Positions 8,793 through 57,105 of a DNA stretch of 64,000 nt are shown here, piece by piece. The position numbers were made by a program, and so were the translations under genes. The notes under the pieces were generated by a model that was not told the origin of the DNA, searched no databases, and saw nothing but the letters and a program-made list of their open reading frames with translations. This stretch comes from a virus (lineage: Duplodnaviria > Heunggongvirae > Uroviricota > Caudoviricetes): positions 7,197 through 71,196 of IMG/VR virus record IMGVR_UViG_3300024346_000025; one strand, 5' to 3'. How positions within the stretch are numbered: the first letter of the stretch is position 1; each line of letters begins with the position of its first letter.

Positions 8793-9368
8793 ATGCGTTT
8801 ATTTGAGTTAGCAAACAACCAACCTAAGCACAGGACCGCCGTGTTTACGTTTGGTCGCTGCAATCCGCCAACGATTGGACATGAGAAGCTTGTGCAGACA
8901 GTACAGAATGTTGCACAGGCTAATGACGCTGATTCATTTATTTTTCTCTCACAAACACAGAAGAAGCCAAAGGATCCTTTGTCTTGGCAAGACAAGCTAA
9001 AAATATTTAAGATGATGTTCCCATCTGCAAACGTTTGGGAAGACCCTGCCATAAAGACACCCTTCCAAGCATTAGGTGAACTAGCTGAAGATTATAAGAA
9101 TATTATTCTTGTTGTGGGTGATGACCGAGCAGAGCAGTTTGCTTTGGGCATGGGCAAGTATGCAAAAGAGTGGGACGTGGAGAATTTCTCTGTTGTCTCG
9201 GCTGGTGGTCGCGACCCTAACGCTGAAGGTGTTGAAGGTATGTCAGCATCCAAAGCAAGGTCATACGTTGCAGCTGGAGACTTCCCTAACTTCGCTTCAT
9301 CTTTACCCAATACAATTTCCACAAAACAAAAGAAAGCTATCTTTCAACTCCTAACTAAATCTATGTAA
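8793..9368 (+). CDS. nucleotidyltransferase (HxGH / cytidylyltransferase-like fold); possibly NMN adenylyltransferase-like
   Basis: N-terminal FTFGRCNPPTIGHEKL resembles the G-R-F-x-P-x-H-x-G-H motif of archaeal-type NMNAT and related nucleotidyltransferases. Confidence 0.5.
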   Translation: MRLFELANNQPKHRTAVFTFGRCNPPTIGHEKLVQTVQNVAQANDADSFIFLSQTQKKPKDPLSWQDKLKIFKMMFPSANVWEDPAIKTPFQALGELAEDYKNIILVVGDDRAEQFALGMGKYAKEWDVENFSVVSAGGRDPNAEGVEGMSASKARSYVAAGDFPNFASSLPNTISTKQKKAIFQLLTKSM

Positions 9369-9708: not shown

Positions 9709-9993
9709 ATGACTCACTTTATCCGAGACGTCTGGTCATTCTGGAAGGAAACTTGGCGCCTCGATAAAGTATTATTCTTTGCAGAGGCTATAGGCACATT
9801 CTGCGGCATGACTGCGGCAGCAACGATGGGACTGCAAACGCCCAACCCTGACCTACCAGTCATCTATGCATTTTATCTTGCAAGTGGCATGCTTTTAGCG
9901 TATACTAGTTATATACGTCGAGCATCTTGGATGGTAGTCCTCATGTCGTTTTATGTGCTGACAACAATTATTGGAATAGGAAAACTCTTTTAA
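9709..9993 (+). CDS. small membrane protein (94 aa)
   Basis: Hydrophobic segments AIGTFCGMTAAATMGL… and MVVLMSFYVLTTIIGIG; its stop TAA overlaps the polymerase ATG (TAATG). Confidence 0.45.
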   Translation: MTHFIRDVWSFWKETWRLDKVLFFAEAIGTFCGMTAAATMGLQTPNPDLPVIYAFYLASGMLLAYTSYIRRASWMVVLMSFYVLTTIIGIGKLF

Positions 9994-12962
9994 TGTATGT
10001 AGACGCGCTATTTTCAAAAAAGCAATCACAAGTAAAAGTGGTAGAACGTGTAGATGGTAAACGCATCTACAAAGACTATCCCGCCATATACGAATTCTAT
10101 GCAGAAGATCCTAAGGGTCGTTTCAAAGGTTTGCATGGCGAATCCCTAACTAAATTTTCATGCGGTTCTGATGCGGACTTCCGAAAGACAAAGCGCATGA
10201 ACAGCAACAAAAACCTTTTTGAGTCAGATGTAAAGCCCGTTAACAAGGTGTTAGAGAAGTATTATCAGCACACAAACCCTGCTGAGATGCACGTGGCCTT
10301 CTTCGATATTGAGACAGACTTCGACCGAGAGACAGGCTATAGCTCGCCTGAGGATGCCAGTAACGCTATCTTATCCGTGGCTGTTCATCTACAGTGGCTT
10401 GGTCAAACAGTTTGCTTGGCTGTGCCTCCCAAGGGTATGGACATGGAAGAGGCAAAGAAGATTGCTGACCGTGTTGGTAACACCATCATGTATTATGAGG
10501 AAGCCCATATGCTAGATGCGTTCCTCACACTAATTGAAGACGCTGATGTGTTGAGTGGTTGGTATAGTGAAGGATTTGATATCCCATACACCGTCAATCG
10601 CATTACGCGGATACTTGGTAAGGCTGAGACACGCAGGATGTGCTTGTGGAATGAACTGCCTGAGATGCGCATGGTGGCGCGCGGCGGTAAAGAATCACCC
10701 ACGTATGACTTGGTCGGTCGTGTTCACCTTGACTACTTGCAGCTATACAAAAAGTTTATTTACGAGCAGCGTCCAAGCTGGTCACTAGACGCAATTGCGG
10801 AACACGAACTGGGCGACTGTAAGGTGCCTTATGACGGTACACTAGACGCACTGTATAACAAGGACTTTGAGAAGTTCCTACGATACAACATACAAGATAC
10901 AGAACTGCTAGACAAGCTAGACAAAAAGTTGCAGTATATTGATTTGGCATGTAGCATTGCACACGGTAATTCGGTTGTCATCAAGGCAGCGATGGGCGCG
11001 GTAGCAGTTACAGAACAAGCGATTATTATAGAAGCGCATAACAGGAATGTAATGGTGCCAGATCGTGTGCGTGTTGGTGAAGATGATTTGCCAGCTGCGG
11101 GCGGATGGGTCCAGACCCCGAAAAAGGGATTGCACCGCTGGGTCGGTTCATCTGACTTGAACTCACTATACCCCTCAGTGTTACGCGCACTGAACATGAG
11201 TCCCGAGACCATTGTTGGTCAGGTTCGGCATGATGGCACTGACAAAGCTATACGAGATTTTATTGAGGCTGCGAAACGTAATTCATTTACGGAGTGGTGG
11301 AATGACCGCTTTAATACGTTGGAGATGGAACACTTCTTCAACAACGATAACGTGGAGCGTCTCACGCTAGACATGGCAGACGGGTCGTCGTGTGAGGTCA
11401 CTGGTGCTGAATTGCGCAAGCTAGTTTTTGAAAGTGGCAACCCATGGTGTATCTCAGCGAACGGTACGATCTTCCGCACAGACGTGGACGGCGTGATTCC
11501 TGGCTTGTTAGGTCGCTGGTATGCAGAGCGTAAAAAGCTACAAGCGATCAAGCGTGACTATGATGCGCTACAGGAAGGCGTACACGTTGACATACGCGCT
11601 GACGTTGCAAGCGACATTACGGAAAACTTAGAGCGCAAGCGTGAAGCTGGTGAGGTGTCGATTGTTAATGCGTTGGATCAGAATCAGGTGTTCAGTGTTG
11701 CGGCATTGAAGAAAAAGGCTGAGAGTAAGAATCCCGAAGACCTATATGCGTATATGCTCTCACACAACCTTGTGTTTGACAAGCAGGGTTTGGTTCACTA
11801 TGCAGATAAAGCGCAACTGAAAAAGATCATTGGCTTCTGGGATAAGAGGCAGTTGGTCAAAAAGATTAGCTTGAACTCATTGTATGGTGGGTTGTTGAAT
11901 GAGCATTGTAGGTTTTACGATCACAGGTTAGGTCAAAGCACAACGCTAACTGGTCGTACAATTGCACGACACATGTCTGCTAAGACGAATGAGATCATTG
12001 ATAATGTTTACGATCATACAGGGCGGTCTGTTTTGTACGGTGATACTGACTCAGTTTATTTTTCGGCGTATCCTATATTGAAGGATGAAATTGAAGCTGG
12101 CGAAATTGTTTGGAATAAAGAGAGTGTGGTTGAGCTTTACGATGTAATTGGTGAGCAGGTATCAGATTCATTCCCGCAGTTCCTCAGTGAGGCACTTAAC
12201 GTCCCGCAGAACAGAGGCAACGTTATGAAGTCGGGTCGGGAAATTGTAGCTGAGACTGCACTGTTTGTTACAAAGAAACGCTATGCTGCATTGGTATATG
12301 ATGAAGAAGGTAACAGACGAGACGTAGACGGCAAGGATGGTAAGCTAAAGATTACTGGACTTGATCTGCGCAGGTCAGACACACCTGTCATTGTGCAAAC
12401 ATTTTTGACTGAGGTGCTGAAAGATGTGCTTGCGCTTGTTGACGAAGAGACAATTATTGAGAAAGTGCGCAAGTTCAAACAGCAGTTTAGTGAGCTTCAT
12501 CCTTGGGAACAGGGGTCGCCGACGGCAGTAAATAATCTTACACGCTACACAGATGCGCTGGAGAAGTCCTTAGAGAACAAGTTTACGGAATTCAAAAAGC
12601 TATCTAAAACTGTAGCTAACACAGAGAAATTGTCGATTCCAGGTCATGTTATGGCAAGCATAAATTGGAATAGGCTGCGGGCTGTGCATAACGACTTGCA
12701 CACCGTAAAGATAGTTGACGGACATAAGGTGAACGTGTGTTGGTTGAAAGATGGCAACGACATGAGAATGTCATCTGTTGCGTATCCTGTAGAGGAACCT
12801 CATCTTCCTGACTGGTTCATCAATTTACCTTTTGACACAGACAGCATGATGCGGTCTAACGTAGATAAAAAGGTAGAAAATCTTCTTGGTGTGTTGGGTT
12901 GGGATTTGTCTAGAACAACACCCTCAGCCGCACACATGGAAACTTTGTTTGACTTTTCCTAG
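9993..12962 (+). CDS. family-B DNA polymerase (about 990 aa)
   Basis: Exo I FFDIETDFD near nt 10300; YGDTDS motif near nt 12040; KxxxNSxYG-like LNSLYG. Start placed at the ATG at 9993 (TAATG overlap), not the upstream ATG at 9927. Confidence 0.9.
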   Translation: MYVDALFSKKQSQVKVVERVDGKRIYKDYPAIYEFYAEDPKGRFKGLHGESLTKFSCGSDADFRKTKRMNSNKNLFESDVKPVNKVLEKYYQHTNPAEMHVAFFDIETDFDRETGYSSPEDASNAILSVAVHLQWLGQTVCLAVPPKGMDMEEAKKIADRVGNTIMYYEEAHMLDAFLTLIEDADVLSGWYSEGFDIPYTVNRITRILGKAETRRMCLWNELPEMRMVARGGKESPTYDLVGRVHLDYLQLYKKFIYEQRPSWSLDAIAEHELGDCKVPYDGTLDALYNKDFEKFLRYNIQDTELLDKLDKKLQYIDLACSIAHGNSVVIKAAMGAVAVTEQAIIIEAHNRNVMVPDRVRVGEDDLPAAGGWVQTPKKGLHRWVGSSDLNSLYPSVLRALNMSPETIVGQVRHDGTDKAIRDFIEAAKRNSFTEWWNDRFNTLEMEHFFNNDNVERLTLDMADGSSCEVTGAELRKLVFESGNPWCISANGTIFRTDVDGVIPGLLGRWYAERKKLQAIKRDYDALQEGVHVDIRADVASDITENLERKREAGEVSIVNALDQNQVFSVAALKKKAESKNPEDLYAYMLSHNLVFDKQGLVHYADKAQLKKIIGFWDKRQLVKKISLNSLYGGLLNEHCRFYDHRLGQSTTLTGRTIARHMSAKTNEIIDNVYDHTGRSVLYGDTDSVYFSAYPILKDEIEAGEIVWNKESVVELYDVIGEQVSDSFPQFLSEALNVPQNRGNVMKSGREIVAETALFVTKKRYAALVYDEEGNRRDVDGKDGKLKITGLDLRRSDTPVIVQTFLTEVLKDVLALVDEETIIEKVRKFKQQFSELHPWEQGSPTAVNNLTRYTDALEKSLENKFTEFKKLSKTVANTEKLSIPGHVMASINWNRLRAVHNDLHTVKIVDGHKVNVCWLKDGNDMRMSSVAYPVEEPHLPDWFINLPFDTDSMMRSNVDKKVENLLGVLGWDLSRTTPSAAHMETLFDFS

Positions 12963-12977
12963 AAAGTATGCTATAAT
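12949..12977 (+). promoter_or_regulatory. sigma70-type promoter TTGACT-17-TATAAT inside the polymerase 3' end
   Basis: TTGACT 12949-12954; TATAAT 12972-12977; drives the gene at 13004. Confidence 0.45.
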
Positions 12978-13003
12978 TAATCGTAATTGCAACAGGAGTA
13001 TTT

Positions 13004-13750
13004 ATGCTATCGGAAGTATTGACTGATATCCTTGACCATACACATGGCTTAGGATTTATTGAAGTGTTAAAGATCACAAAGGATGCAGCCAACAAGACAA
13101 AGTTGGAAGCAATGCATCACATGCGAGCGGTCGTTATGTATGGCGAACTAAAGACGCCACTAAGTGAGATCACTGACACAATTGGCCTATCTCGGATGGC
13201 GGTGCTACAAGGCTACTTGAAGTTCCCACCGTTCACCGCAGATAAAGCAACCATCGAAATCATCTCACAACAGAGAGCCGGTGTAGATACGCCTACAGAA
13301 ATCCAATTCACCTCACCCGACGGACACGAAGCAAATTATCGTTTCATGCACAAGGATGCGGTAGACAGTGAGATCAAGGTGCCTACATTCAAAGGTGCAA
13401 CATGGGATGTAACTGTGGTGCCTACGGCTGAGAATTTGAAGGAGCTATCTTATTTCAATGGTGTGCTTGGCGCGTATGAGCCTACATTCCTTGCAAAGAC
13501 AGATGGCACCGAGCTTAATCTTTACATTGGTAGTGGTCCTACTGACCGCGCTACTGTGCCGTTTGCTAAGGGTGTGTCAGGTTCATTAGCTGGTAAGTTT
13601 AGTTTCCCGCTAATTGAGACGCTGGCTATCCTCAAGCTTGCTGCAAAGGCTGATAACTGTACGATGAGTTTTAGCGACAAAGGTGTGTTGCGTATTCTCT
13701 TGTCAACAGCCGTTTGTAACTACGAGTTTATTATACCAGCGAAGATGTAA
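13004..13750 (+). CDS. possible sliding-clamp (gp45-like) protein (248 aa)
   Basis: Sits directly after the polymerase; size and beta-rich composition fit a clamp; C-terminal …CNYEFIIPAKM resembles, from memory, the T4 gp45 …ANYVVALEA tail. Weak similarity only. Confidence 0.4.
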   Translation: MLSEVLTDILDHTHGLGFIEVLKITKDAANKTKLEAMHHMRAVVMYGELKTPLSEITDTIGLSRMAVLQGYLKFPPFTADKATIEIISQQRAGVDTPTEIQFTSPDGHEANYRFMHKDAVDSEIKVPTFKGATWDVTVVPTAENLKELSYFNGVLGAYEPTFLAKTDGTELNLYIGSGPTDRATVPFAKGVSGSLAGKFSFPLIETLAILKLAAKADNCTMSFSDKGVLRILLSTAVCNYEFIIPAKM

Positions 13751-14187
13751 TGGAAGTTATAGATAAATTTGAAGGTGACTTTGCATTTTTATCTAACTTC
13801 TATCCGGCTGAAATAATATACAAAGGGATATGCTATCCCACGGTAGAACATGCATATCAAGCGGCAAAATCAGATGATCCGTCGGTGCGCCGTTTGATGG
13901 CACATCACAGTAATCCTGCGTTAGCTAAAAAGGCTGGCAAAGTTATAAGACTGCGCGAAGACTGGGAAGATGCAAAACTGGGTATTATGAAGGAACTCGT
14001 CGCACAAAAGTTTCAAAACCCCGAACTGCGCGCAATGTTAGATTTAACAGCAGGTTACGAATTGGTTGAAGGTAATTGGTGGGGCGATACCTACTGGGGT
14101 GTTTGCCGTGGCGAAGGTCTCAATTACCTTGGAAATATATTAATGCAGATTAGAGACATAAAAGGAAACGACAATGAGAACAGTTAA
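13750..14187 (+). CDS. NADAR / YbiA-like (DUF1768) domain protein (145 aa)
   Basis: FAFLSNFYPAEIIYKGICYPTVEHAYQAAK plus …GxNxLGNILMQIR are the hallmark NADAR motifs. Confidence 0.75.
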   Translation: MEVIDKFEGDFAFLSNFYPAEIIYKGICYPTVEHAYQAAKSDDPSVRRLMAHHSNPALAKKAGKVIRLREDWEDAKLGIMKELVAQKFQNPELRAMLDLTAGYELVEGNWWGDTYWGVCRGEGLNYLGNILMQIRDIKGNDNENS

Positions 14188-14259
14188 TGTAAATTTACTT
14201 GGCATTGGAAGAACAGCTGGACAATGTCAAACACAAAATACCTCGCATAAGGATACCGA

Positions 14260-15768
14260 ATGAAAGATTTATCAAAATTCAATCAAGACTACGCAACGTT
14301 CTTGCCTGCGGTCAGTGGATTTTACACAGAAATTTTAGGTAGAACCAAACACATAGACGGGTATGTTCCTGAGGGACGTGTGCCAGCAGGCTTTGAGAAT
14401 GGACTAGAGGGAATGAACTTTCTTGATCCAGATCAAGGATACTTCTTTTACGACAAGTGTCTTTACTCCGCTGGTCATGCGTATATGGACCTCGATCAAA
14501 CAGACAGACTAGAATGGATGATCCAGCATCGCGACCCGCGTGTTATGTGTCTTGGTGATTCGGGCGGATTCCAAATTGGTAAGGGCGTTATCAAATTTGA
14601 CTGGGAACGCTTTTACGAGAAGCCCGGTGATCTCGGTTATAAAGGCAAGGCAGATAAAGTTCGGCAAGAGATCCTAACGTGGCTAGAGCACACAGCAGAG
14701 TGGTCAATGATCTTAGACGTTCCGTCTTGGGCAACTACACGACCAGAGACAGGGCTGAAGAATTTTGAGGATTGCTTGAAGGCAACGCTACACAACAATG
14801 ATTATTTTGTAGAACACCGCGAAGGCAAGACTAAGTTCCTCAATGTGCTACAGGGTGTTCATCAGGAAGACGCTGACACATGGTATGAGGCGGTCAAAGA
14901 CTATCCGTTTGAAGGCTGGGCAATGGGCGGTAATACTTTGCGAGATGTGTCCATGTGTTTGCGCAGACTTATTATTATGCGTGACGAAGGCAAGCTTGAA
15001 GGCAAGGACTGGATGCACTTTTTGGGCACCTCACGTTTAGACTGGACAGTTATGTTGACAGCGTTGCAGCGTCAGTTACGCAAGCATTGTAACCCCAACC
15101 TCACAGTCAGTTTCGATTGTGCTAGTCCTTTTATTGCTACTGCTAACGGTCTTGTATACTCTCAAAACGTATTGACTAACGATAGGTTTAGTTATATAAT
15201 GGAAGGTTGCTTTGATGATAAATCATTAAAAGGCAGCACGATCCCGTTCCCGTTTGAGAGTGAGATCGGTAAGCGTCTTGTAGCTGGCGACATTTGCACA
15301 CTAGGTCCAGGTGACTTGAACAAGCGTGGTGATGTTGGTAAGACAAGCTGGGATAGTTTTAGTTACACTATGCTAATGGCGCACAATGTTTACGCACATA
15401 TACGGGCGGTACAGCGGTCAAACGCACTTGCAGACATTGAGTCAATTGAGTGTAACCCAGATTATTTGATGTGGCGTAAAGTAAAACGCAAAGACAAGTC
15501 TGCGGAACTTTCAAAATGGGTTCCACGTAACTTGCTTTACTTTAATAATTTTGTCGAGCGTCTATTTGATTCTCACAAGCCAATGACCATGATCGAAGAA
15601 GCTGGACCATTCTTACAAGACTTTAACAACAACCGAATTGAAGATGGTCATTCACCTCTGTTTAGGGACTTGTTCTCAGAAGAGGCTAGTGAGGCTGACG
15701 ATACAACGTATGATCGAGAGGATGATTCGTTGGATGGACTAGAAGAATTTATACGAAAGGAGACATAA
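14260..15768 (+). CDS. tRNA-guanine transglycosylase superfamily protein; DpdA-like DNA-guanine transglycosylase candidate (502 aa)
   Basis: LGDSGGFQIG matches the Tgt catalytic-Asp motif (DSGGFQ); VLQGVHQED resembles the Tgt GIVQGG region; sits beside QueD and QueE genes. No CxCxxC zinc motif seen. Confidence 0.55.
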   Translation: MKDLSKFNQDYATFLPAVSGFYTEILGRTKHIDGYVPEGRVPAGFENGLEGMNFLDPDQGYFFYDKCLYSAGHAYMDLDQTDRLEWMIQHRDPRVMCLGDSGGFQIGKGVIKFDWERFYEKPGDLGYKGKADKVRQEILTWLEHTAEWSMILDVPSWATTRPETGLKNFEDCLKATLHNNDYFVEHREGKTKFLNVLQGVHQEDADTWYEAVKDYPFEGWAMGGNTLRDVSMCLRRLIIMRDEGKLEGKDWMHFLGTSRLDWTVMLTALQRQLRKHCNPNLTVSFDCASPFIATANGLVYSQNVLTNDRFSYIMEGCFDDKSLKGSTIPFPFESEIGKRLVAGDICTLGPGDLNKRGDVGKTSWDSFSYTMLMAHNVYAHIRAVQRSNALADIESIECNPDYLMWRKVKRKDKSAELSKWVPRNLLYFNNFVERLFDSHKPMTMIEEAGPFLQDFNNNRIEDGHSPLFRDLFSEEASEADDTTYDREDDSLDGLEEFIRKET

Positions 15769-15983
15769 TGGATATCGAAAAGAAAATGCACCTAGAGATT
15801 AGTGGGTGGCAGGACTACGTAAAACTGGTTCGCACAAAGGCAACCGAAAAGTTTGAGAAAGGTATTCTCGACATTGGTATGGGAACGCACACCACATATT
15901 TCATCTTCACTTGCTATATGAATAGTGTGGAGCCGGAAGAGTGTGCTAAGATTTTGATGGACAAATTTCCCGAGGTCGAGTGA
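15768..15983 (+). CDS. hypothetical protein (71 aa)
   Basis: ATGA overlap with the upstream stop. Confidence 0.4.
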   Translation: MDIEKKMHLEISGWQDYVKLVRTKATEKFEKGILDIGMGTHTTYFIFTCYMNSVEPEECAKILMDKFPEVE

Positions 15984-16522
15984 TGGAACGCACATACGCA
16001 AACAGCAACGGCCCCACAACGCAAGCGACTTTCTTCTATGGCATCGAAGTAGAGAAGACACCTGCCTATGGTTTCCCTACGTTGTTTGTGGTTGGATTAC
16101 AACCAGTGGATCTTGTTTTACAGATGGCGCGCGCGAAAGCACAGCCGGAATGGGATAAGGGTAAGATCAAACACATTTATCTTGGAGCTAACCATAGCTT
16201 CAACCAAGATGAAGAATGGGCAACGCTGATTGATGCATTGTTACATGAGGGTTTTTGGGTAACGTTAGATTATCCTAGCCGTGTTCATAATTTTGTGATG
16301 CGCATACTCAATCAAGAAATGCGCCACAGTTGTTTTATTCCCATGATTTCTATTGAGATGCCAAACATTGAGGCGTTTAGTTATAATGCTGTGATAAAGA
16401 TTGATGATCAAGATATGGATTATTCCAACCCTGGTGTTTGGTGTCATCGTATACACAACTTAATGTCAGATGAAGCCTTTACTCATTGGAACGCATACAA
16501 AGATGATAAGTTAGCAAAATAG
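15980..16522 (+). CDS. hypothetical protein (180 aa)
   Basis: ORF in operon context between the dpdA-like gene and def; no recognisable motif. Not QueC (no SGGxDS) and not FolE. Confidence 0.5.
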   Translation: MMERTYANSNGPTTQATFFYGIEVEKTPAYGFPTLFVVGLQPVDLVLQMARAKAQPEWDKGKIKHIYLGANHSFNQDEEWATLIDALLHEGFWVTLDYPSRVHNFVMRILNQEMRHSCFIPMISIEMPNIEAFSYNAVIKIDDQDMDYSNPGVWCHRIHNLMSDEAFTHWNAYKDDKLAK

Positions 16523-17011
16523 ATGTATAAAATTCTTTATTGGCCAGATCAAAGGTTGCGGGACGTTGCTGATGAGGTGACGGATTTTGCTGCGGCTGAG
16601 GACATTATAGCGCGAATGTTTGAGACAATGTACGCTGACAAAGGTATCGGTCTTGCTGCTACGCAGGTCGGTATTCCCTTACGCATCTTTGTTATGGATA
16701 CGGGATTAGATAAAATTGCGTTTATAAACCCAAAGATAATTGAACGTAATGGTACGATAACTCAGATGGAAGGTTGTCTTAGTTTCCCTGGTATTTTTGT
16801 GCCAATTGAACGAGCTGAATCAATAACTGTTCAATATCAGCTATTGACATGTGAAACAATAGAGCGTATACTGTATGGTACAGAAGCACAATGTGTACAG
16901 CATGAGATAGATCATCTTAATGGAATTGTCTTTTTTGATTATCTCAAAACAACTAAGCGCATGATGGCTGAAAACAAATTACGCAAAAAGTTAAAGGCAT
17001 TAAAGAAATGA
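16523..17011 (+). CDS. def: peptide deformylase
   Basis: Three Def motifs: GIGLAATQ, EGCLSFPG and HEIDHLNG. Confidence 0.85.
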   Translation: MYKILYWPDQRLRDVADEVTDFAAAEDIIARMFETMYADKGIGLAATQVGIPLRIFVMDTGLDKIAFINPKIIERNGTITQMEGCLSFPGIFVPIERAESITVQYQLLTCETIERILYGTEAQCVQHEIDHLNGIVFFDYLKTTKRMMAENKLRKKLKALKK

Positions 17012-17550
17012 TTTTTAAGCGGGTATCGAAACAAAAAATCCGGGGCCAACGGTTTGATAAATTATTAGAGTGGCGGAGGACTTTTATAATTTGGCCGCGC
17101 CCTCTTGTACATTGGGGGCTGGCCAGTGAAGACTCATCAATAGAATGGGCGGTATTTCAGTTTGTAATGAAACGCAATACAAAATATGGTGTTGCCAAAG
17201 GCAATTATATTTCAACGCCATGGCCTTGGCGCAAGATATTTGAGTGGAGAATGGACGCCGAGTATACAACCGATAAACATCTTTTCCATGAACGACTAAA
17301 AGGTGGATCTGGGTCTTCTAACGATGATATGGAAGAAACTTCCCAGGTCATGTCTCATGTTGGAACTAGACCAATCAACGCTATCGCTGGTTCTACTTGG
17401 ATTGATACAACAACAGGTGATACATACATTTATGATGGCTACACATGGATTCGGCAACTATCTTATAAGCAACAAGCAACCGCGAATAAAATGATCGCTG
17501 CTATCAAACAGAAACACGCACAAAGGAGACCTAATGCGAGTACAAAATAA
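17008..17550 (+). CDS. hypothetical protein (180 aa)
   Basis: ORF overlapping the neighbouring genes by 4 nt. Confidence 0.45.
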   Translation: MIFKRVSKQKIRGQRFDKLLEWRRTFIIWPRPLVHWGLASEDSSIEWAVFQFVMKRNTKYGVAKGNYISTPWPWRKIFEWRMDAEYTTDKHLFHERLKGGSGSSNDDMEETSQVMSHVGTRPINAIAGSTWIDTTTGDTYIYDGYTWIRQLSYKQQATANKMIAAIKQKHAQRRPNASTK

Positions 17551-17923: not shown

Positions 17924-19036
17924 ATGAAAGTATATGTGATAGACCTTGAGTCCGTACCAACGCGATACACTTGCGAGTGGAAAGGACATATCCCTGCACT
18001 TCTAAGCGAAGCTGCTACCCATAGGGATAGACTCGACGTAGAGATTGTAAATATCTCCGGCGGAGAAGAACAGTTGAAGGCCACGCCAGGCGCCTTCCTG
18101 AACTTTGCGCAAACCAACGTGTATAAGAATAATCAACTCACGCAGGTTGCAAAGCTATTCTCCGAGGGCAAGGTCTTGCCTGGCGACCAATTCATTTTTA
18201 CTGATGCATGGAACCCAGCTATTATACAGCTAAAGTACATGAGCCAGTTGCTAGACATTCCGGTTGTTATTCATGCGCTATGGCATGCTGGCAGTTACGA
18301 TCCGCAAGACTTTTTAGGTCGTCTTATAAAGGACAAACGCTGGACTAATAATTTTGAGAAATCAATTTGGCATGCTGTAGACTACAATTGGTTTGCAACA
18401 CAATTCCACATCGACATGTTTTTTGAAAATGTTTTTGGGTGTTTTGGGTTGCAATTAGATGCAGCGGAATGGCAGCGCAAATCGCTACGTACTGGCTGGC
18501 CAATGGAGTATATGACAAAGACGTTAGATCATTACAAAGGTCTAAAAAAGCGCAACCTCATATTGTTCCCACATAGGCTTGCCCCAGAGAAGCAACCCGA
18601 AATGTTCCGCGATCTTGCAAAGTCTATGCCACAGTACGAATGGATTGTGTGTCAAGACGAAGAGCTGACAAAGAATGAATACCACAAGCTACTAGGTGAA
18701 GCAAAAATTGTTTTGTCGTTGAACCTACAAGAGACGCTAGGCATTAGTTGTTTTGAAGGTGCTATTGTTGATGCACACCCGCTAGTCCCTGATAGACTCA
18801 GTTACATGGAAATGTATAATGAGCGTTGGAAATATCCTGAGGAGTGGGCAACACCTGAGATGTATCCTAACGGTGGTAAAGAATTGCTTATGGAAAAGAT
18901 TGAACACTTTATGGAGAACTATGGTCGCTACGTTGATGAGGTTAGTGAACTAGCGAAGCATTTACAGAAAGACTTTTTTGCTGCTGGGCCACTACTTGAC
19001 AAGGTCCTCGGTCCGGTACCGAAAGGAGACAAGTGA
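17924..19036 (+). CDS. GT-B fold glycosyltransferase (370 aa)
   Basis: FPHRLAPEKQPEMF resembles the GT4 E-x7-E / RLxxEKG region; Rossmann-like N-terminal half. Confidence 0.45.
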   Translation: MKVYVIDLESVPTRYTCEWKGHIPALLSEAATHRDRLDVEIVNISGGEEQLKATPGAFLNFAQTNVYKNNQLTQVAKLFSEGKVLPGDQFIFTDAWNPAIIQLKYMSQLLDIPVVIHALWHAGSYDPQDFLGRLIKDKRWTNNFEKSIWHAVDYNWFATQFHIDMFFENVFGCFGLQLDAAEWQRKSLRTGWPMEYMTKTLDHYKGLKKRNLILFPHRLAPEKQPEMFRDLAKSMPQYEWIVCQDEELTKNEYHKLLGEAKIVLSLNLQETLGISCFEGAIVDAHPLVPDRLSYMEMYNERWKYPEEWATPEMYPNGGKELLMEKIEHFMENYGRYVDEVSELAKHLQKDFFAAGPLLDKVLGPVPKGDK

Positions 19037-19368: not shown

Positions 19369-19600
19369 TATAGATGATATTTGTGATACTGTTGACAGCT
19401 TAGAGCGTGTTGTTGAACGCATGGCTCAAGCCGAAAAACACACAGCAATGGAGCTTGCAAAGTTACAGGATCAGATTTATTATATGTGTGAAATGCTTAG
19501 TCTTGCTACTGATCCTGACCGAGCAAAGGATAATGCGCTTCTAAAAGAAGCTTACGACAAATATATGTTTACAGTACATTTGGTACTAGGGAAGGAATAA
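19343..19600 (+). CDS. hypothetical protein (85 aa; start could be 19361)
   Basis: C-terminus …LKEAYDKYMFTVHLVLGKE is paralogous to the previous ORF. Confidence 0.45.
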   Translation: MERIRLMSDIDDICDTVDSLERVVERMAQAEKHTAMELAKLQDQIYYMCEMLSLATDPDRAKDNALLKEAYDKYMFTVHLVLGKE

Positions 19601-20055
19601 TGGATAAGAAATATATTACTTGGACCGAAGTTGAAACATTGGTTAGCCATTTGTGCGAGCATGTTGAATCTAGCGGATTCAAACCTGACGTTGTATTAGG
19701 TATTAGCCGCGGCGGCCTTATACCATCGGTCATGCTTAGTCATTGCTGGGACATTCCTATGATCCCTTTACGTTGGTCTACACGCGATCATCTTTACACA
19801 GATGCAGACACAGTGGCTGAAATAATAAAGGAAGTAGAAGATGGTAAGCGGTTGCTGATTGTAGATGATATTTGCGATAGCGGTGTTACGCTAACAGAGC
19901 TTAACGATCACTTTGCAAATATGCTACCTAAGATGAGAGACAATATCAAATTTGCAACATTGCATCAACGCGCTGGATCAAAGCTAGTCCCTGACTTTAT
20001 TGGCGGATATATTACTGACGGAATGTGGATTGTCTATCCTTACGAGGAGTTTTAG
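19600..20055 (+). CDS. gpt: xanthine-guanine phosphoribosyltransferase-like PRTase (151 aa)
   Basis: KYITWTEV, ISRGGL and PRPP-binding LLIVDDICDSGVTL, with C-terminal WIVYPYE. Co-linear with E. coli Gpt (KYIVTWD, VSRGGL, IVIDDLVDTGGT, WIEQPWD). Confidence 0.75.
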   Translation: MDKKYITWTEVETLVSHLCEHVESSGFKPDVVLGISRGGLIPSVMLSHCWDIPMIPLRWSTRDHLYTDADTVAEIIKEVEDGKRLLIVDDICDSGVTLTELNDHFANMLPKMRDNIKFATLHQRAGSKLVPDFIGGYITDGMWIVYPYEEF

Positions 20056-20218: not shown

Positions 20219-21130
20219 ATGCCAAACATGAACAAACATAAATATAGCGAGATTTTTACATCTATTCAAGGTGAAGGAGAATACACGGGTACGCCAACAG
20301 TATGGCTACGCTGGTTTCTCTGTAACTTACAATGCAGCGGCTTTGGTCAAAAAGTGCCAGAAGACCCCTCAACACACGTTTTGCCTTATGAGGAATTCGA
20401 TATAAGCAATATAAAGCGGATTGAGGATTTGCCAGTTTGGAGTACAGGTTGTGATTCAAGCTATAGCTGGGCTAAAAAGTACCGCCACTTGTGCCCCGAA
20501 GGCACAGCAGAGGAAATTGCTGATAAGCTTGAGGAGCAGTTAGTTAGTATGCACGATAAGCATCCTACGTTCTTTAACGAACACAGCTTGCAGTACACAC
20601 ACTTTTGTATGACGGGTGGCGAGCCGATGATGAAGCGGACGCAAACTGCACAAATAGAATTGATGAATGAATTCCTACGGCGCAATAACGTCCCCATGTT
20701 TATTACAGTTGAGACTAATGGCACACAACCGCTTGCAGAAGACATGGCGCAAACTATTATGCAATACGTGTACTCTGGTGGTGAATGGTTTTGGTCGGTG
20801 TCGCCCAAGCTACTGTACACAAGCGGCGAGCAACCTGCGAAAGCAATTAAGCCCGAGGTCGTAAAATCGTATCAAGACATAAGCCCTCGCGGTCAGCTAA
20901 AATTTGTTGTGAGCAACAGGAAGGAAGCGTGGGATGAGCTTGAGGCAACGGTGAAATTATTTAGAGACGCGGGCGTTGTATGGCCGGTGTGGATCATGCC
21001 TGTAGGTGCTACAGTAGAAGCGCAAAGTGACGATGATATGCGGGCAGTGGTCGAAGAAACAATAAGGCGCGGCTATAAGGTGGCGGCGCGAGTACATTGC
21101 TATATATGGGGCAACAAAATTGGAACGTAA
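20219..21130 (+). CDS. queE: 7-carboxy-7-deazaguanine synthase (QueE, radical SAM)
   Basis: EIFTSIQGEGEYTGTPTVWLRWFLCNLQC resembles E. coli QueE ([32 protein letters not shown]); TGGEPMM SAM motif. The Cys cluster CNLQC is non-canonical. Confidence 0.65.
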   Translation: MPNMNKHKYSEIFTSIQGEGEYTGTPTVWLRWFLCNLQCSGFGQKVPEDPSTHVLPYEEFDISNIKRIEDLPVWSTGCDSSYSWAKKYRHLCPEGTAEEIADKLEEQLVSMHDKHPTFFNEHSLQYTHFCMTGGEPMMKRTQTAQIELMNEFLRRNNVPMFITVETNGTQPLAEDMAQTIMQYVYSGGEWFWSVSPKLLYTSGEQPAKAIKPEVVKSYQDISPRGQLKFVVSNRKEAWDELEATVKLFRDAGVVWPVWIMPVGATVEAQSDDDMRAVVEETIRRGYKVAARVHCYIWGNKIGT

Positions 21131-26230: not shown

Positions 26231-27451
26231 ATGGCACGGACAAGAGACGAAAATGCCCTCAGTTTTAACACGGTTTGCCCCAGAGATGCTGCGGCACTTC
26301 TGAGACACACTATGGCCGTTGGGCGCCCTGTAATGCTTTGGGGACCGCCCGGAATCGGAAAATCTGACATTATTGCTCAGATTGGTAAATCCCAAAATCG
26401 CCCAGTAATCGACCTTCGGTTGCTGCTAATGGAGCCCACAGACCTGAAGGGCATCCCCTATTACGACACGAAGACTGGCTTGATGCGTTGGGCTAAGCCT
26501 TCGGAACTTCCTACTATTGTGTCGGCTGAAGACGTTACCCTTGCTGAAAATACGCTGGCGCGTTTGGTTGATGACAAGGCCCCGGAAGAAGATATTAAGG
26601 CGGCTCGGCATCACCTCGAGGTGGTCGCTGGTAATTTTGCTTTGCAGAATGCAATCTTGTTCCTCGATGAGGTCAACGCAGCACCTCAGTCCGTTCAGGC
26701 AGCTGCCTACCAGCTGATCTTGAACCGCAAGATCGGTGAGTATATTCTGCCTAAGGGTGTGAGCATTGTCGCTGCTGGTAACAGAGAGACAGATAAGGCG
26801 GTTACTTTCCGTATGCCGTCGGCGTTGGCTAACAGGTTCGTCCACTTAGAGATGAAGGTTCGCTTTGATGATTGGTTCGATTGGTCAATTGACCACAGAG
26901 TGAAGTCAGACGTGGTCGGTTTCTTGAAGGCTCACCCTCACCGTTTGTTTGAGTTTGATCCTAAGAATGCCTCAAAGGCGTTCCCCACTCCTCGGTCTTG
27001 GGTGTTTGTTAGCGAGTTGATGAGTGACGACATGCCCGACAACCTCAACCAGTTCCTGGTTGCTGGTACGGTCGGTGATGGTCTTGCGCTGGAATTTATG
27101 CAGCACCGTCGTCTGAAGGACAGTCTGCCTTCGGTGGAAGACATCCTCAGCGGTCGTGTTACGAAGTTTGCGAACCCGGACAAGGTTGAGATTTCGGCAC
27201 TGTACTCGTTGGTGATCTCACTGTGTCATTCCTTGCAGGACTTTGCAGTTGACAACAAATCGGACAGCAAGGCTTGGGAAACAGCGACCACCAACTTCCT
27301 CGAGTTTACAATGAACAACCTGTCCAATGAGGTTGCGGTGTTGGCTGCGGTGACTGCGATTCGGAAATACAAGATTGATTTTGTATTTGGTTCGAAGGCG
27401 TTTGACAAGTTTTACGAGAAGTATGGCGAGTCTGTTAACGCTTACAACTAA
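26231..27451 (+). CDS. MoxR-family AAA+ ATPase (CobS-like)
   Basis: Walker A LWGPPGIGKSD; Walker B ILFLDEVNAA; sensor region AAGNRE. Confidence 0.8.
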   Translation: MARTRDENALSFNTVCPRDAAALLRHTMAVGRPVMLWGPPGIGKSDIIAQIGKSQNRPVIDLRLLLMEPTDLKGIPYYDTKTGLMRWAKPSELPTIVSAEDVTLAENTLARLVDDKAPEEDIKAARHHLEVVAGNFALQNAILFLDEVNAAPQSVQAAAYQLILNRKIGEYILPKGVSIVAAGNRETDKAVTFRMPSALANRFVHLEMKVRFDDWFDWSIDHRVKSDVVGFLKAHPHRLFEFDPKNASKAFPTPRSWVFVSELMSDDMPDNLNQFLVAGTVGDGLALEFMQHRRLKDSLPSVEDILSGRVTKFANPDKVEISALYSLVISLCHSLQDFAVDNKSDSKAWETATTNFLEFTMNNLSNEVAVLAAVTAIRKYKIDFVFGSKAFDKFYEKYGESVNAYN

Positions 27452-27474
27452 GCTACTGGTTCCCGGAGAGATAT

Positions 27475-28743
27475 ATGAGTTTTGATCGTTACAAGCAGGC
27501 TACCCCAGAAGAGAAGCTCTCACAGGCTAGGCTGTCTTTTATCCTCCAGCAGTCGCCATTCTTCGGCACGCTGGCACTACACCTAAAGCTGGTGGAGGCT
27601 GATTGGCTTCCTACAGCTGGTGTGGATGGAAAACATCTTTACTACAATCCTGAATTTGTTGGTCGGCTGAACCACGAAGAGTGCAAGTTCCTCATCGCCC
27701 ACGAAGTGATGCATTGTGTATACGAACATATGCTCCGTCGGAATGGTCGGGAACCTCGTTTGTGGAATTGTGCTGCGGACTACGTTATCAATTGGGAATT
27801 GAAAGAGATTGGTGTTGGTACGATCATCCCGCCCGAGAAGTTAGTTGATCCTGAGGTTCTGAAGAAGAACCCCAACTACATCCGTGACAACAAGGTCGGT
27901 GCTTTGATTGACCGTCGGTTTGCTGGTATGTCGTCTGAGGAAGTCTTCAAAATCCTAGACGATGAAAAACAAGAGCAAGGTGATTCGATGGATCAGCACA
28001 TTGAAGTGGTGTTTGGTCAGCCTGGTGAAGGTGATCCTTCTGGCAAGAATGGCCCAATCCCAATGACCAAGGATGAGATTGAGCGTCTGCCTGACGATAT
28101 CCGCAAGGCGGTTATGGATGCTGCTAAGATTGCTGAGGAGATGGGCGGCGCTGGTAACTTGCCTGGTGGTGTCCGTCGGCTGTTGGAGAAGTGGAATGAT
28201 TCTCAGATGGACTGGCGCGAGGTTTTGAACTGCATCATCCAGTCCTTGTTTAAGAGCGATTACACTTGGCAGCGCCCTTCGCGTAAGAGCTTCCAGTCTG
28301 GTTGCTACCTGCCTGGCATGAAGAACGACGAGCGTGTTAGCGTTGACGTTGCTATTGATACTTCTGGTTCAATGACTGCTAAGATGTTGGCTGACTTCCT
28401 CGGTGAGGTTCGCGGCATTATGGAACAGTTCCAGGACTTCAAGCTTCGCGTTTGGTGTTTTGATACTTCGACCTACACGATCCACACTTACGAAGCTGAT
28501 AACTTGGAAGACATTGACGATTTTGAAATGGAAGGCGGTGGTGGCACGATGTTTGAGTGTAACTGGGAAATGATGCGTGAGAATGAGATCATGCCCGACC
28601 AGTTGCTTGTGTTTACTGACGGTTACCCCTGTGGTTCATGGGGCGAGGAAGATTACTGTGATACAGCGTTTGTGGTTCATGGTAAAAAGGACATCATTGC
28701 CCCGTTTGGTGAGACTGTATACTACGAACGCGAGGAAGCATAA
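27475..28743 (+). CDS. VWA-domain protein with an N-terminal HExxH metallopeptidase-like domain (DUF2201-type MoxR partner; CobT-like)
   Basis: HEVMHCVYEH (HExxH); MIDAS motif VAIDTSGSM; follows the MoxR gene in the same transcriptional unit. Confidence 0.7.
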   Translation: MSFDRYKQATPEEKLSQARLSFILQQSPFFGTLALHLKLVEADWLPTAGVDGKHLYYNPEFVGRLNHEECKFLIAHEVMHCVYEHMLRRNGREPRLWNCAADYVINWELKEIGVGTIIPPEKLVDPEVLKKNPNYIRDNKVGALIDRRFAGMSSEEVFKILDDEKQEQGDSMDQHIEVVFGQPGEGDPSGKNGPIPMTKDEIERLPDDIRKAVMDAAKIAEEMGGAGNLPGGVRRLLEKWNDSQMDWREVLNCIIQSLFKSDYTWQRPSRKSFQSGCYLPGMKNDERVSVDVAIDTSGSMTAKMLADFLGEVRGIMEQFQDFKLRVWCFDTSTYTIHTYEADNLEDIDDFEMEGGGGTMFECNWEMMRENEIMPDQLLVFTDGYPCGSWGEEDYCDTAFVVHGKKDIIAPFGETVYYEREEA

Positions 28744-28746
28744 ATC

Positions 28747-29091
28747 ATGGCTAAGCGGTTCGCGATAACCGAACAACCCGAAGATAAAGAAAAAGCAGCC
28801 TTTATCAACGAACTAAAGGGTATTACATATCCTCGAGATATGTTTGGTGCCTTAATGGATATAGGTGATACAATTATTCTTGGTGGCGGGCAATGGGGTG
28901 CGAGCTTGTTTCTTGCTACAGTTATCCAATTCAATTATCTTATTGAGGACGGAACCTACCGATTTACATCTATTAGCGCGAAACGGCTTGGAAAAAAAGG
29001 TCGCAGATTGACTGGAAATCCTCGAGAATCCGTAATTATGAACGATGAAACCATCAATCAAATGCGCAAACACTTGAAATCTAAAGAGTAA
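28747..29091 (+). CDS. hypothetical protein (114 aa)
   Basis: Operon context only. Confidence 0.45.
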   Translation: MAKRFAITEQPEDKEKAAFINELKGITYPRDMFGALMDIGDTIILGGGQWGASLFLATVIQFNYLIEDGTYRFTSISAKRLGKKGRRLTGNPRESVIMNDETINQMRKHLKSKE

Positions 29092-29098
29092 ATAGTTC

Positions 29099-29127
29099 TT
29101 GACTTTCCCCTTCACCTTTGCTATAAT
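29099..29127 (+). promoter_or_regulatory. sigma70-type promoter TTGACT-17-TATAAT
   Basis: TTGACT 29099-29104; TATAAT 29122-29127. Confidence 0.6.
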
Positions 29128-29148
29128 AGTGGTATATTAGGACTACAC

Positions 29149-30402
29149 ATGGGAAATAAGATGTCAAATTACGAGGTAACCCAAGGATTGAACGGTCAGG
29201 GCATAGTAAAGTCTTGGACTAAGGGTGTCAATTTTGAATCTCAGGCACGCGACCAGTTAAAGAACATTGCGTCACTGCCATTTATACATAGCCACGTTGC
29301 AGCAATGCCAGACGTTCATCTTGGTATTGGTGCTACTGTTGGATCGGTTATTGCAACCAAAGGTGCGATCATTCCTGCGGCTGTCGGCGTGGACATTGGC
29401 TGCGGCATGAACGCGATTCGTCTTTCGCTGAAGGCAGAAGACTTGCCAGATTCTTTGGTTAGCACTCGCCACGAAATCGAAAAGCTTGTTCCTGTTGGGC
29501 ACGAAGACCACAATCTTTCGCGGTTGGGTAGCAAGCATAACAGCGGCACAACCAAAATTCTTAACAACTATTTCGCACAGTTGGAACCTGGCTATAAGGC
29601 TTTGGTCGAAAAGCATCCAGCGATTGCGAAGATGGGTCGTGAATTAGACCAGCGCGTCTACCGTCAGATCGGAACGTTGGGTGGTGGAAACCACTTCATC
29701 GAATTGTGTCTTGACGAGGTCGGCGATGTGTGGGTTATGTTGCACTCGGGTTCGCGTAACCCAGGTAACTGTATTGGTCGCTATTTCATTGATCTTGCAA
29801 AGCAGGATATGGAGCGTCACTTCATTAGCTTGCCAGATAAGGATCTTGCATACCTTGTAGAAGGTACAGACCACTACGACGATTATGTAGAAGGTGTATC
29901 TTGGGCGCAGGATTTTGCATATCGTAACAGACAGGCAATGATGACGCTGGTTCTTACGGCGTTGCAGAACAAGCTGCCTCCGTTTACAATTACGAAGGAA
30001 GCGATCAACTGTCACCATAACTACGTGGCGATGGAAAACCATTTTGGTGCGAACGTACACGTTACGCGCAAAGGTGCAGTTCGCGCTCGCGTTGGCGACT
30101 ACGGAATCATTCCTGGTTCGATGGGCGCAAAGTCGTTCATCGTTCGCGGACTTGGCAACGCAGATTCGTTCCACTCTTGTTCTCACGGGGCAGGTCGCAA
30201 CCACTCGCGCTCGGCGGCTAAGAAGCTTTTCTCGGTGGAAGATCATGAGAAGGCAACGGCTGGTGTAGAGTGTCGAAAGGATGCTGGTGTGATAGATGAG
30301 ACTCCTTTGGCATACAAGGACATTGATGCTGTAATGGAGGCGCAGAAGGATTTGGTTGAGATTGTGCATACGTTGAAGCAGGTTGTTTGTGTAAAGGGCT
30401 AA
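29149..30402 (+). CDS. rtcB: RtcB-family RNA 3'-phosphate ligase
   Basis: PDVHLGIGATVG, GVDIGCGM, GGGNHFIEL and CSHGAGR motifs; 417 aa. The start could instead be the ATG at 29161. Confidence 0.85.
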   Translation: MGNKMSNYEVTQGLNGQGIVKSWTKGVNFESQARDQLKNIASLPFIHSHVAAMPDVHLGIGATVGSVIATKGAIIPAAVGVDIGCGMNAIRLSLKAEDLPDSLVSTRHEIEKLVPVGHEDHNLSRLGSKHNSGTTKILNNYFAQLEPGYKALVEKHPAIAKMGRELDQRVYRQIGTLGGGNHFIELCLDEVGDVWVMLHSGSRNPGNCIGRYFIDLAKQDMERHFISLPDKDLAYLVEGTDHYDDYVEGVSWAQDFAYRNRQAMMTLVLTALQNKLPPFTITKEAINCHHNYVAMENHFGANVHVTRKGAVRARVGDYGIIPGSMGAKSFIVRGLGNADSFHSCSHGAGRNHSRSAAKKLFSVEDHEKATAGVECRKDAGVIDETPLAYKDIDAVMEAQKDLVEIVHTLKQVVCVKG

Positions 30403-50997: not shown

Positions 50998-51012
50998 TAA
51001 TTCTTATCCTTC

Positions 51013-56180: not shown

Positions 56181-57105
56181 AGGCTGCTATGACGCCTACG
56201 TCAGGAAGGCAAATATTTGGCCATGGTAGGGAATCCATAAACGGGAGAGAGTTAATCCATCCCATCATCATGTCTGTGGAATACTGCGAGCATTTCGTCT
56301 GTAGTGATTTAATGCCTTCCTGTAATTCTAATTCTGGAATTTCAAAGCCCGCAAATAGTGGGTCAGGCAAATCCGAAATGTTCACACCAGGGAAACCAGG
56401 GATGCCTGCGATTGCTAACGCTTTTAGATCGGCTAAGGATGGCGTAGCTGGGAGCAATGCTAAAAGATCGGCTGTGGTTGGTAGAGATAATAGTGTAAAC
56501 GCAAGCATATAATCGCCGCCGACTGCACCGCCACCCACCAATGCAGCAACCGCATCTGAGATTGCTGATGCTCCTCCAAAGATTAGCATATAGATTGTGC
56601 TTGTATAGCCACGTATAATATTTTGCAGTGCTACGCCAAATTCGTAGTCAGGAATTCCTAAGCCCTGGAATAATGGATCCGAAACAAACGGCTGTAAAAA
56701 TCCTAAGAATGAAAAATCACCAGCTATTGCGTATTGTGCTTTTAATGCTGCTATTAAGTCATTTGCGTTAGCTGTCAACAAATCCACAAAGCTTACACCT
56801 ATGCCCGGGATATCTGGAATCGGAATCGTAATGCCTAAAATACTGTCGATACCATCAAGCAATGTTGCTAGTGATTGTAGTTGTAAACCTGCAAAAAATT
56901 CAGTTGCCAGTGCATTAAGCTCCATTGGTATGTTGCTCATTGAGGGCATTAATGGATTCGGCATTGACGGTATAGGAAATGGAAACGCTGATATTGACAA
57001 GGTCATGGGTGTAAACAGCGGTGTGCTTGGCGCGAGTGCCATCATTGCGGCTGTTACACTGCTAAAACTAGGGAGTGCCGGTCCTACGTCAAAACACAAG
57101 CCCAT
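56179..57105 (-). CDS. Pro-rich hydrophobic structural protein (308 aa)
   Basis: Directly downstream of the spike gene with an ATGA overlap. Confidence 0.45.
   Translation of the reverse strand: MGLCFDVGPALPSFSSVTAAMMALAPSTPLFTPMTLSISAFPFPIPSMPNPLMPSMSNIPMELNALATEFFAGLQLQSLATLLDGIDSILGITIPIPDIPGIGVSFVDLLTANANDLIAALKAQYAIAGDFSFLGFLQPFVSDPLFQGLGIPDYEFGVALQNIIRGYTSTIYMLIFGGASAISDAVAALVGGGAVGGDYMLAFTLLSLPTTADLLALLPATPSLADLKALAIAGIPGFPGVNISDLPDPLFAGFEIPELELQEGIKSLQTKCSQYSTDMMMGWINSLPFMDSLPWPNICLPDVGVIAA

Follow-up and report, generated by a model that had tools for sequence, protein, structure and literature searches.

What does a phage gain from a lone NADAR protein encoded next to its DNA polymerase? 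This question is raised by a 64,000-nucleotide stretch of the IMG/VR virus record IMGVR_UViG_3300024346_000025 (Caudoviricetes; positions 7,197 to 71,196 of the record), which was analysed as a whole and is called the window here. A sequence-only reading had placed a NADAR/YbiA-domain protein at positions 13750-14187 of the window and had suggested that it erases ADP-ribosylation from DNA, in counter-defence or repair. The domain assignment proved right, and the idea of an eraser with a counter-defence role is the best-supported reading, as the protein keeps the catalytic Glu/Lys/Glu residues and is 46% identical to AdfN-Bas32, a phage NADAR with experimentally demonstrated activity. By comparison with that protein, we consider it probable that the window NADAR removes ADP-ribose from guanines of DNA and thereby serves counter-defence.

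The open reading frame (ORF) matches the Pfam family PF08719 (NADAR) over positions 9-160 of the 163-position model with 79.9 bits (E=3.3e-22), compared with a gathering score of 35.1, and PHROG 1017 with E=8.7e-41. Among PDB sequences it retrieves E. coli YbiA (2b3w, E=1.4e-16) and the NADAR of Phytophthora in complex with ADP-ribose (PnNADAR, 8bau, E=8e-6), and the metagenome protein database contains about 1,600 homologues. With 48 homologues as input, AlphaFold2 gave a model with a predicted local distance difference test score (pLDDT) of 95.0 and a predicted template modelling score (pTM) of 0.88. When searched against the PDB with Foldseek, the only significant matches of the model were again YbiA 2b3w (E=2e-10, query-normalised TM-score (TMq) 0.80) and PnNADAR 8bau (E=8e-7, TMq 0.75), so that the alpha+beta fold of NADARs is seen in the model. 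Together, the Pfam, PHROG and PDB matches, the number of homologues and the modelled fold put the assignment far beyond chance; the ORF is real and an ordinary member of the NADAR family. It is also the only NADAR of the window, since an hmmsearch of all six frames of the 64 kb revealed neither a second copy nor one of the T4 gp30.3 type.

All motifs named in the sequence-only reading were recovered, namely FLSNFYP (residues 13-19), YPTVEHAYQAAK (29-40), GLNYLG (123-128) and R135. In an alignment of 48 sequences, L14, S15, N16 and F17 of the first motif are invariant. The active site was mapped by sequence alignment to the PnNADAR residues that contact ADP-ribose (PMC11543638). Here, E33, K40, K60, D71, W72, E107, D113 and W116 of the window NADAR correspond to E43, K50, K75, D86, W89, E125, D130 and W133 of PnNADAR, respectively. 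E33, K40, E107 and D113 are invariant in the 48 homologues and W116 is conserved in at least 90% of them; a catalytic Glu/Lys pair and an acidic residue at the position of PnNADAR E125 are hence present as E33, K40 and E107. The equivalents of E33 and K40 are E88 and K95 in the NADAR of E. coli C7, and E36 and K43 in AdfN of phage T4, and mutation of either pair led to a loss of function (PMC11543638 for E. coli C7, PMC11825919 for T4). The E107 position differs between the known groups: YbiA-type proteins carry Glu there, DarT1-linked antitoxins Asp (Asp171) and members of the T4 gp30.3 clade His (PMC11543638); both the window NADAR and AdfN-Bas32 have Glu. Judging from these residues, the window NADAR is probably a catalytically competent N-glycosidase, belonging to the same phage group as AdfN-Bas32.

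By sequence, AdfN-Bas32 is the closest characterised relative. This protein (bas32_0066, QXV80247.1, the NADAR of Escherichia phage Bas32, IrisVonRoten), the own sequence of which matches a single place in the Bas32 genome, shares 46% identity with the window NADAR across 136 residues (117 bits, E=2e-39). Other matches are a NADAR of a T5-like Salmonella phage (46%, 123 bits) and those of the isolate phages Salvo, KLPPOU148 and Ochrobactrum phage OC (46-53%, 141-144 bits), and bit scores within the phage group (117-170) lie above those to E. coli YbiA (70-90; 73 bits and 36-38% identity for the window NADAR). Searches with the window NADAR and with AdfN-Bas32 retrieved 508 and 468 phage records, respectively, with the same organism profile and essentially equal sets, and both proteins belong to PHROG 1017, whereas T4 gp30.3 falls into PHROG 652. 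The comparison with validated AdfN proteins covered those of Bas32 and T4. Homology is evident for the Bas32 protein, while the T4 protein is not detectably similar (no BLASTP match, 21% identity in an alignment).

Johannesman et al. (2025, PMC11825919) showed that AdfN-Bas32 counteracts DarT1 in E. coli and lets RB69, T5 and Bas25 form plaques again on DarTG1 hosts, without an effect on DarTG2. The window NADAR resembles this protein in several respects: both are stand-alone phage proteins of ~145-149 amino acids (aa) without an adjoining cognate toxin gene, share the E/K/E/D/W active-site pattern including the 'EGNxWGDTYWGVCRG' block, and are encoded in an early nucleotide-metabolism or replication region. 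They differ in lineage, a T5-like siphovirus compared with an uncultured jumbo-like phage, and in their neighbours, which are RNase H and DUF7022 genes in Bas32 and a clamp-like and a tRNA-guanine transglycosylase (TGT)-like gene in the window. The window NADAR is phage-encoded, as seen from the family-B DNA polymerase (PolB), the baseplate genes and the giant structural ORFs of the window, and no ADP-ribosyltransferase domain was detected in the ~40 window ORFs scanned against Pfam, a set that does not cover every small ORF. By its sequence and context, it thus plausibly fits the AdfN class of phage orphan NADARs.

Two other identities were considered and rejected. DarG1 (E. coli C7 and Geobacter lovleyi; Schuller et al. 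2023, PMC11543638) belongs to the same superfamily, its E88 and K95 corresponding to E33 and K40 and its DNA-side K115 to K60. However, DarG1 forms an operon with the DarT1 gene, whereas the window NADAR stands between the clamp-like and TGT-fold ORFs, and the Asp171 of DarT1-linked NADARs is replaced by Glu at the E107 position. With neither a DarT1 neighbour nor this Asp, the window NADAR is not a DarG1-type antitoxin. The PDB sequence search gave no match to the Geobacter NADAR structure at E<0.01, and PADLOC returned only a weak match of 29 bits to the candidate-system NADAR PDC-M42C. T4 gp30.3 (AdfN-T4; PF08010) is likewise a phage orphan NADAR with the conserved Glu/Lys pair; it acts on ADP-ribosyl-guanine (G-ADPr) in DNA (PMC11125620, PMC11825919) and requires a T-even context to work (PMC11825919). 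A gp30.3-type identity was discarded, as PF08010 gives the window NADAR 16.6 bits against a gathering score of 36, the PHROG is a different one, and the E107 position is occupied by Glu instead of the His of the T4 clade.

According to the favoured reading, the NADAR gene would be expressed early together with the replication genes, its start overlapping the stop of the clamp-like gene. DarT1-type ADP-ribosyltransferases of the host would place ADP-ribose on guanines of single-stranded phage DNA, and the NADAR would then hydrolyse the bond between ribose C1'' and guanine N2 of G-ADPr. This would release ADP-ribose and restore the guanine, allowing replication to go on. All NADAR subtypes assayed so far hydrolyse G-ADPr in vitro (PMC11125620), while those assayed were all inactive on thymine-ADP-ribose (PMC11825919, PMC11125620), so that a reversal of DarT2 modification by the window NADAR is not expected. 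We infer the G-ADPr DNA substrate, the role in vivo and the presence of such a toxin in the host by analogy, and regard the reading as a whole as having somewhat better than even prospects.

Several points weigh against it. The identity to the validated AdfN-Bas32 is only 46%, whereas that to the housekeeping protein YbiA still amounts to 37-38%, and the TIGR02464 model of the YbiA type is passed, if by 2 bits. YbiA and T4 gp30.3 are active in vitro, yet each alone fails against DarT1 toxicity (PMC11125620, PMC11825919); activity in vitro is therefore no guarantee of rescue in vivo, and proteins with the same catalytic residues differ in their specificity in the cell. The residue at the E107 position is Glu and not the Asp typical of DarT1-linked antitoxins. 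This does not exclude an anti-DarT1 activity, since AdfN-Bas32 shares the Glu. Finally, a comparative study argues that most phage NADARs target small molecules derived from ADP-ribose rather than macromolecules (PMC9503650).

The substrate may also be a nucleic acid other than guanine-modified DNA. No hydrolase family other than the NADARs has been found to undo the ADP-ribosylation of guanosine in RNA (PMC11833690), NADARs of the YbiA type also remove ADP-ribose from cytidine (PMC12945103), and Johannesman et al. raised other defences that ADP-ribosylate DNA or RNA as a possibility (PMC11825919). The window NADAR might thus clear RNA bases or cytosine and counter RNA-targeting or pierisin-like toxins, and the RtcB RNA ligase of the window indicates that measures against RNA damage belong to the repertoire of the phage. 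However, the NADAR gene is coupled to the PolB/clamp-like operon with RtcB 15 kb away, and the sole known in-vivo phenotype of a close relative is directed against the DNA toxin DarT1 (PMC11825919). We consider an RNA or cytosine substrate as the actual function unlikely, although such an activity would be compatible with one on DNA guanine, the two not being mutually exclusive.

How far the gene belongs to the core of these phages was evaluated in a locus survey, for which 80 IMG/VR loci with relatives of the 502-aa protein encoded downstream of the NADAR and three metagenomic contigs (83 loci in total) were searched with hidden Markov models for the NADAR, the clamp-like and the 502-aa, TGT-like protein. 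In 81 of the 83 loci, the TGT-like gene is preceded by the clamp-like gene on the same strand. A NADAR is found in three (L023, L024 and L027, which are among the closest relatives), each time in the slot between the two genes, and is absent within 6 kb in the other 80, all of which carry the TGT-like gene. The slot NADARs are 50-55% identical to that of the window, and the TGT-like proteins flanking them 62-71%. In 34 loci there is no gap between the clamp-like and TGT-like genes, while in others the slot extends to ~1.3 kb and sometimes holds small accessory ORFs or the NADAR; in PA5oct (an 86-aa ORF), Vibrio phage 2.275.O and Phosso it is filled by unrelated ORFs. A conserved pairing of NADAR and TGT-like gene was consequently rejected, given the three loci out of 83 and as neither ORF 467 of 2.275.O nor the slot 'glycosylase' of Phosso is a NADAR.

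Elsewhere the surroundings of the NADAR vary. In a syntenic contig of P0037 (ERZ21844627) it stands between the FEN gene and the AAA_5/DUF2201 genes, surrounded by small ORFs; a homologue of Gad2 (anti-Gabija, PF26128) follows after ~700 bp, and QueD and QueE-like genes precede the NADAR by 3-5 kb. This arrangement looks like an anti-defence islet. In isolate phages, the genes adjoining the closest NADARs are anonymous early genes or encode a helicase or RNase H. Such distribution and surroundings are those of a mobile accessory gene within transcription units for early functions or replication; they fit counter-defence and argue against an obligatory role in replication or in a neighbouring pathway. 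A foreign origin was not apparent from composition, as the GC content of the gene (41.8%) is not distinct from that of the window (43.7%) and gives no sign of a recent transfer. At least 22 metagenomic contigs (up to 100 kb) encode the identical protein in the same gene order.

The patchy presence also bears on a metabolic function. As a YbiA-type N-glycosidase, the protein could keep the nucleotide pool in order during infection by hydrolysing GTP-derived intermediates of the riboflavin pathway or some other small N-riboside. YbiA is its best PDB match, shares the fold and the Glu at the E107 position that marks the YbiA-type active site, and GTP-derived chemistry is encoded nearby by the QueE-like and xanthine-guanine phosphoribosyltransferase (XGPRT)-like genes. 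Furthermore, TIGR02464 assigns the window NADAR 75.8 bits at a cut-off of 73.7. True YbiA of E. coli, however, reaches 169.5 bits, and AdfN-Bas32 (66.3) and its T5-like relative (76.5) score in the range of the window protein, so that this label does not discriminate. YbiA is encoded chromosomally in a LexA-controlled operon with dinG, whereas the window gene is a patchily distributed phage accessory, and presence in three loci out of 83 would be unusual for a metabolic need. Neither a ribA/ribD-like gene nor a corresponding fusion was found among the ~40 scanned window ORFs, and even YbiA hydrolyses G-ADPr in vitro (PMC11125620). A metabolic role therefore appears doubtful. The labels 'GTP cyclohydrolase II', 'riboflavin biosynthesis protein', 'swarming motility protein YbiA' and 'glycosylase' are nonetheless attached to close homologues of AdfN-Bas32 in GenBank; these labels, like the 'unknown function' of PHROG 1017, are probably outdated, and those of riboflavin biosynthesis and GTP cyclohydrolase II probably mislead for these phage genes.

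We judge equally low the chance that the enzyme degrades low-molecular-weight ADP-ribose derivatives, such as immune signals or toxic metabolites, and not macromolecular adducts. This was proposed from comparative genomics (PMC9503650), but the biochemical reports on NADARs all describe hydrolysis of ADP-ribosylated bases (PMC11825919, PMC11125620, PMC11543638, PMC12945103, PMC11833690), and scans of the neighbouring genes showed no SLOG, Macro or Nudix partner adjoining the NADAR. Among the scanned ORFs, Macro or other NAD-related partners were not found either; a weak NMNAT-like or cytidylyltransferase match is listed in Table 1.

The conserved downstream neighbour of the slot, the 502-aa ORF, is of greater interest than the NADAR itself. 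It matches nothing in Pfam, NCBIfam, PHROGs or PADLOC. In a Foldseek search with its AlphaFold2 model (pLDDT 89), the best 50 PDB matches were all tRNA-guanine transglycosylases (best E=7.5e-9). The DSGGxQ and FDCASP motifs are invariant among its homologues; we take them to hold the residues corresponding to the catalytic Asp102 and Asp280 of Zymomonas TGT. The protein has over 7,300 homologues in metagenomes and occurs at least 596 times in IMG/VR, and the position directly downstream of the PolB/clamp-like pair, kept in 81 of the 83 loci, suggests a base-exchange enzyme that is tied to the PolB/clamp module. BLAST with the 502-aa protein gave 13 phage matches, none of them a DpdA3-carrying phage such as CP220 or phiST, and no mention of this subfamily was found in the DpdA literature searched. 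From its modelled fold, the protein is probably a DpdA-like DNA 7-deazaguanine transglycosylase linked to the replication module. Together with the XGPRT-like and QueE-like genes, it suggests 7-deazaguanine synthesis and guanine salvage, while FolE, QueD and QueC were not found among the scanned window ORFs. In Vibrio phage 2.275.O, genes for QueF and a YhhQ-type transporter come after the 502-aa homologue, and Phosso has a folE-like gene in its PolB/clamp region, its own 502-aa homologue lying ~170 kb away.

Instead of being a generic anti-DarT1 factor, a NADAR adapted to such replisome-coupled DNA modification might act at the fork on an ADP-ribosylated guanine or 7-deazaguanine, or on another modified base, and so enable base exchange and replication. 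The grounds for this reading are the probable translational coupling to the clamp-like gene, the position directly before the TGT-fold gene, and the QueE-like and XGPRT-like genes of the phage. If true, de-ADP-ribosylation would be functionally tied to the modification of DNA by 7-deazaguanine, a connection for which we found no description in the literature; we regard it as highly improbable. Outright joint work with the TGT-fold enzyme in guanine or 7-deazaguanine modification, in which the NADAR would clear ADP-ribosylated guanines or process a nucleoside precursor, deserves least credence of all: the TGT-like gene adjoins the NADAR at a gap of 72 bp, QueE-like and XGPRT-like genes follow within 6 kb, in a related contig no more than 5 kb separates the NADAR from QueD and QueE-like genes, and all three relatives with a NADAR keep it in the same slot, but 80 of the 83 TGT-like loci do without one, the slot ORFs of the three isolate phages named above are unrelated to NADAR, the closest NADARs of isolate phages have unrelated gene surroundings, and no published link of NADARs with 7-deazaguanine was found. 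The preQ0 pathway, moreover, yields free bases and needs no N-glycosidase.

The removal of ADP-ribose from DNA guanine in counter-defence thus stays the preferred reading. If it is true, an uncultured, environmentally widespread, jumbo-like lineage would join the phages with orphan NADAR 'antitoxin mimics', and guanine ADP-ribosylation of DNA would be a selective pressure outside the enterobacteria. PHROG 1017, at present of 'unknown function', would gain a functional label, as it holds a validated anti-DarT1 enzyme and has homologues in ~500 phage records. No new question is opened, because concept, enzyme family and assay exist already: phage NADARs have been published as anti-DarT1 factors (Johannesman et al. 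2025, PMC11825919), the mechanism was described in 2023-2025, and NADARs are known to be very common in large phages (PMC9503650).

The features of the window are compiled in Table 1. Their order along the region is PolB, clamp-like ORF, NADAR, 502-aa ORF, small ORFs, peptide deformylase, a 370-aa glycosyltransferase-like ORF, XGPRT-like phosphoribosyltransferase, QueE-like radical-SAM protein and a FEN-type 5'-3' exonuclease. The sequence-only reading had put the NADAR downstream of the polymerase, which holds with the 248-aa ORF in between. Its description as lying among replication genes fits the upstream side with PolB and the clamp-like ORF; downstream, however, follows the TGT-fold, probable DNA-modification gene, and the NADAR is an insertion specific to the lineage that stands outside the conserved replication module. 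PolB is ~40% identical to the enzymes of the jumbo phages Phosso, Atu_ph07, Vibrio phage 2.275.O and 121Q. A megablast of positions 9900..17100 against 50,697 phage records gave no match, and the phage is hence without a close sequenced isolate.

Table 1. Positions of the NADAR gene, its active-site segments and other features of the window.
Feature	Position	Strand	Remark
NADAR-domain ORF	13750..14187	+	ATG start, 145 aa, TAA stop; stand-alone, single-domain
N-terminal FLSNFYP motif, residues 13-19	13786..13806	+	aligns with LSNFYP of PnNADAR 8bau
EHAYQAAK, codons E33 to K40	13846..13869	+	catalytic Glu and phosphate-binding Lys by alignment
EGNWWGDTYW, codons E107 to W116	14068..14098	+	second acidic residue and pyrophosphate-contacting Asp, Trp by alignment
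TAATG junction	13748..13752	+	stop of the 248-aa ORF overlaps the NADAR start by one base
Family-B DNA polymerase (PolB)	9927..12962		upstream of the clamp-like ORF
Sigma-70-like promoter match	12949..12977	+	TTGACT, 17 nt spacer, TG, TATAAT; 11/12; weak hint only
Clamp-like 248-aa ORF	13004..13750	+	conserved upstream neighbour; PHROG 12062
TGT-fold 502-aa ORF	14260..15768	+	conserved downstream neighbour
Peptide deformylase	16523..17011	+	PF01327 E=8e-48
370-aa ORF	17924..19036	+	glycosyltransferase-like
XGPRT-like phosphoribosyltransferase	19600..20055	+	NF006613 E=5e-15
QueE-like radical-SAM protein	20219..21130	+	phrog_2076 E=4e-54; QueE N-terminal motif matches
AAA_5/DUF2201/RtcB set	26231..30402	+
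RtcB RNA ligase	29149..30402	+	E=1.5e-129
Giant ORFs	38980..55395	-	4,005 aa and 1,460 aa, back to back
Phage_base_V baseplate-spike-like genes	57105..58394		upstream of the giant ORFs
NMNAT-like or cytidylyltransferase match	8793..9368		weak

The overlap of the clamp-like and NADAR genes at the TAATG junction indicates that the two are presumably co-transcribed and probably translationally coupled. The sigma-70-like match of Table 1 is located upstream of this gene pair, but such matches in the region are as frequent as expected from shuffles (13 compared with 13.2), and in the combined promoter and terminator scan the counts likewise equalled the shuffle expectation.

The upstream neighbour had been called a sliding-clamp-like gene. 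This label rests on two homologue records annotated 'PCNA' or 'sliding clamp beta' and on the constant synteny with PolB, homologues adjoining PolB in PA5oct, Phosso, Vibrio phage 2.275.O and Atu_ph07. Sequence comparison did not bear it out: the 248-aa ORF has no Pfam match, phmmer and a four-sequence profile against the PDB gave nothing relevant, and hhalign against T4 gp45 yielded a probability of 0.9%. In PA5oct, mass spectrometry led to the homologue being recorded as a 'structural protein' of the virion.

Further along the early gene block lies a peptide deformylase gene, which is conserved in relatives. The 370-aa ORF resembles (49% identity, E=2e-126) a Phosso protein that is annotated as a glycosyltransferase and comes from the same PolB-clamp neighbourhood; its only other match is a faint one to Glyco_transf_61. 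From this similarity it may be a DNA- or modification-related glycosyltransferase. The RtcB RNA ligase is encoded together with an AAA_5 ATPase and a DUF2201 metallopeptidase/VWA pair, and the set may form an RNA-repair or counter-defence module. On the opposite strand, the two giant ORFs have one CBM_5_12 module as their sole Pfam match and, with the baseplate-spike-like genes upstream of them, probably encode giant fibre or virion proteins.

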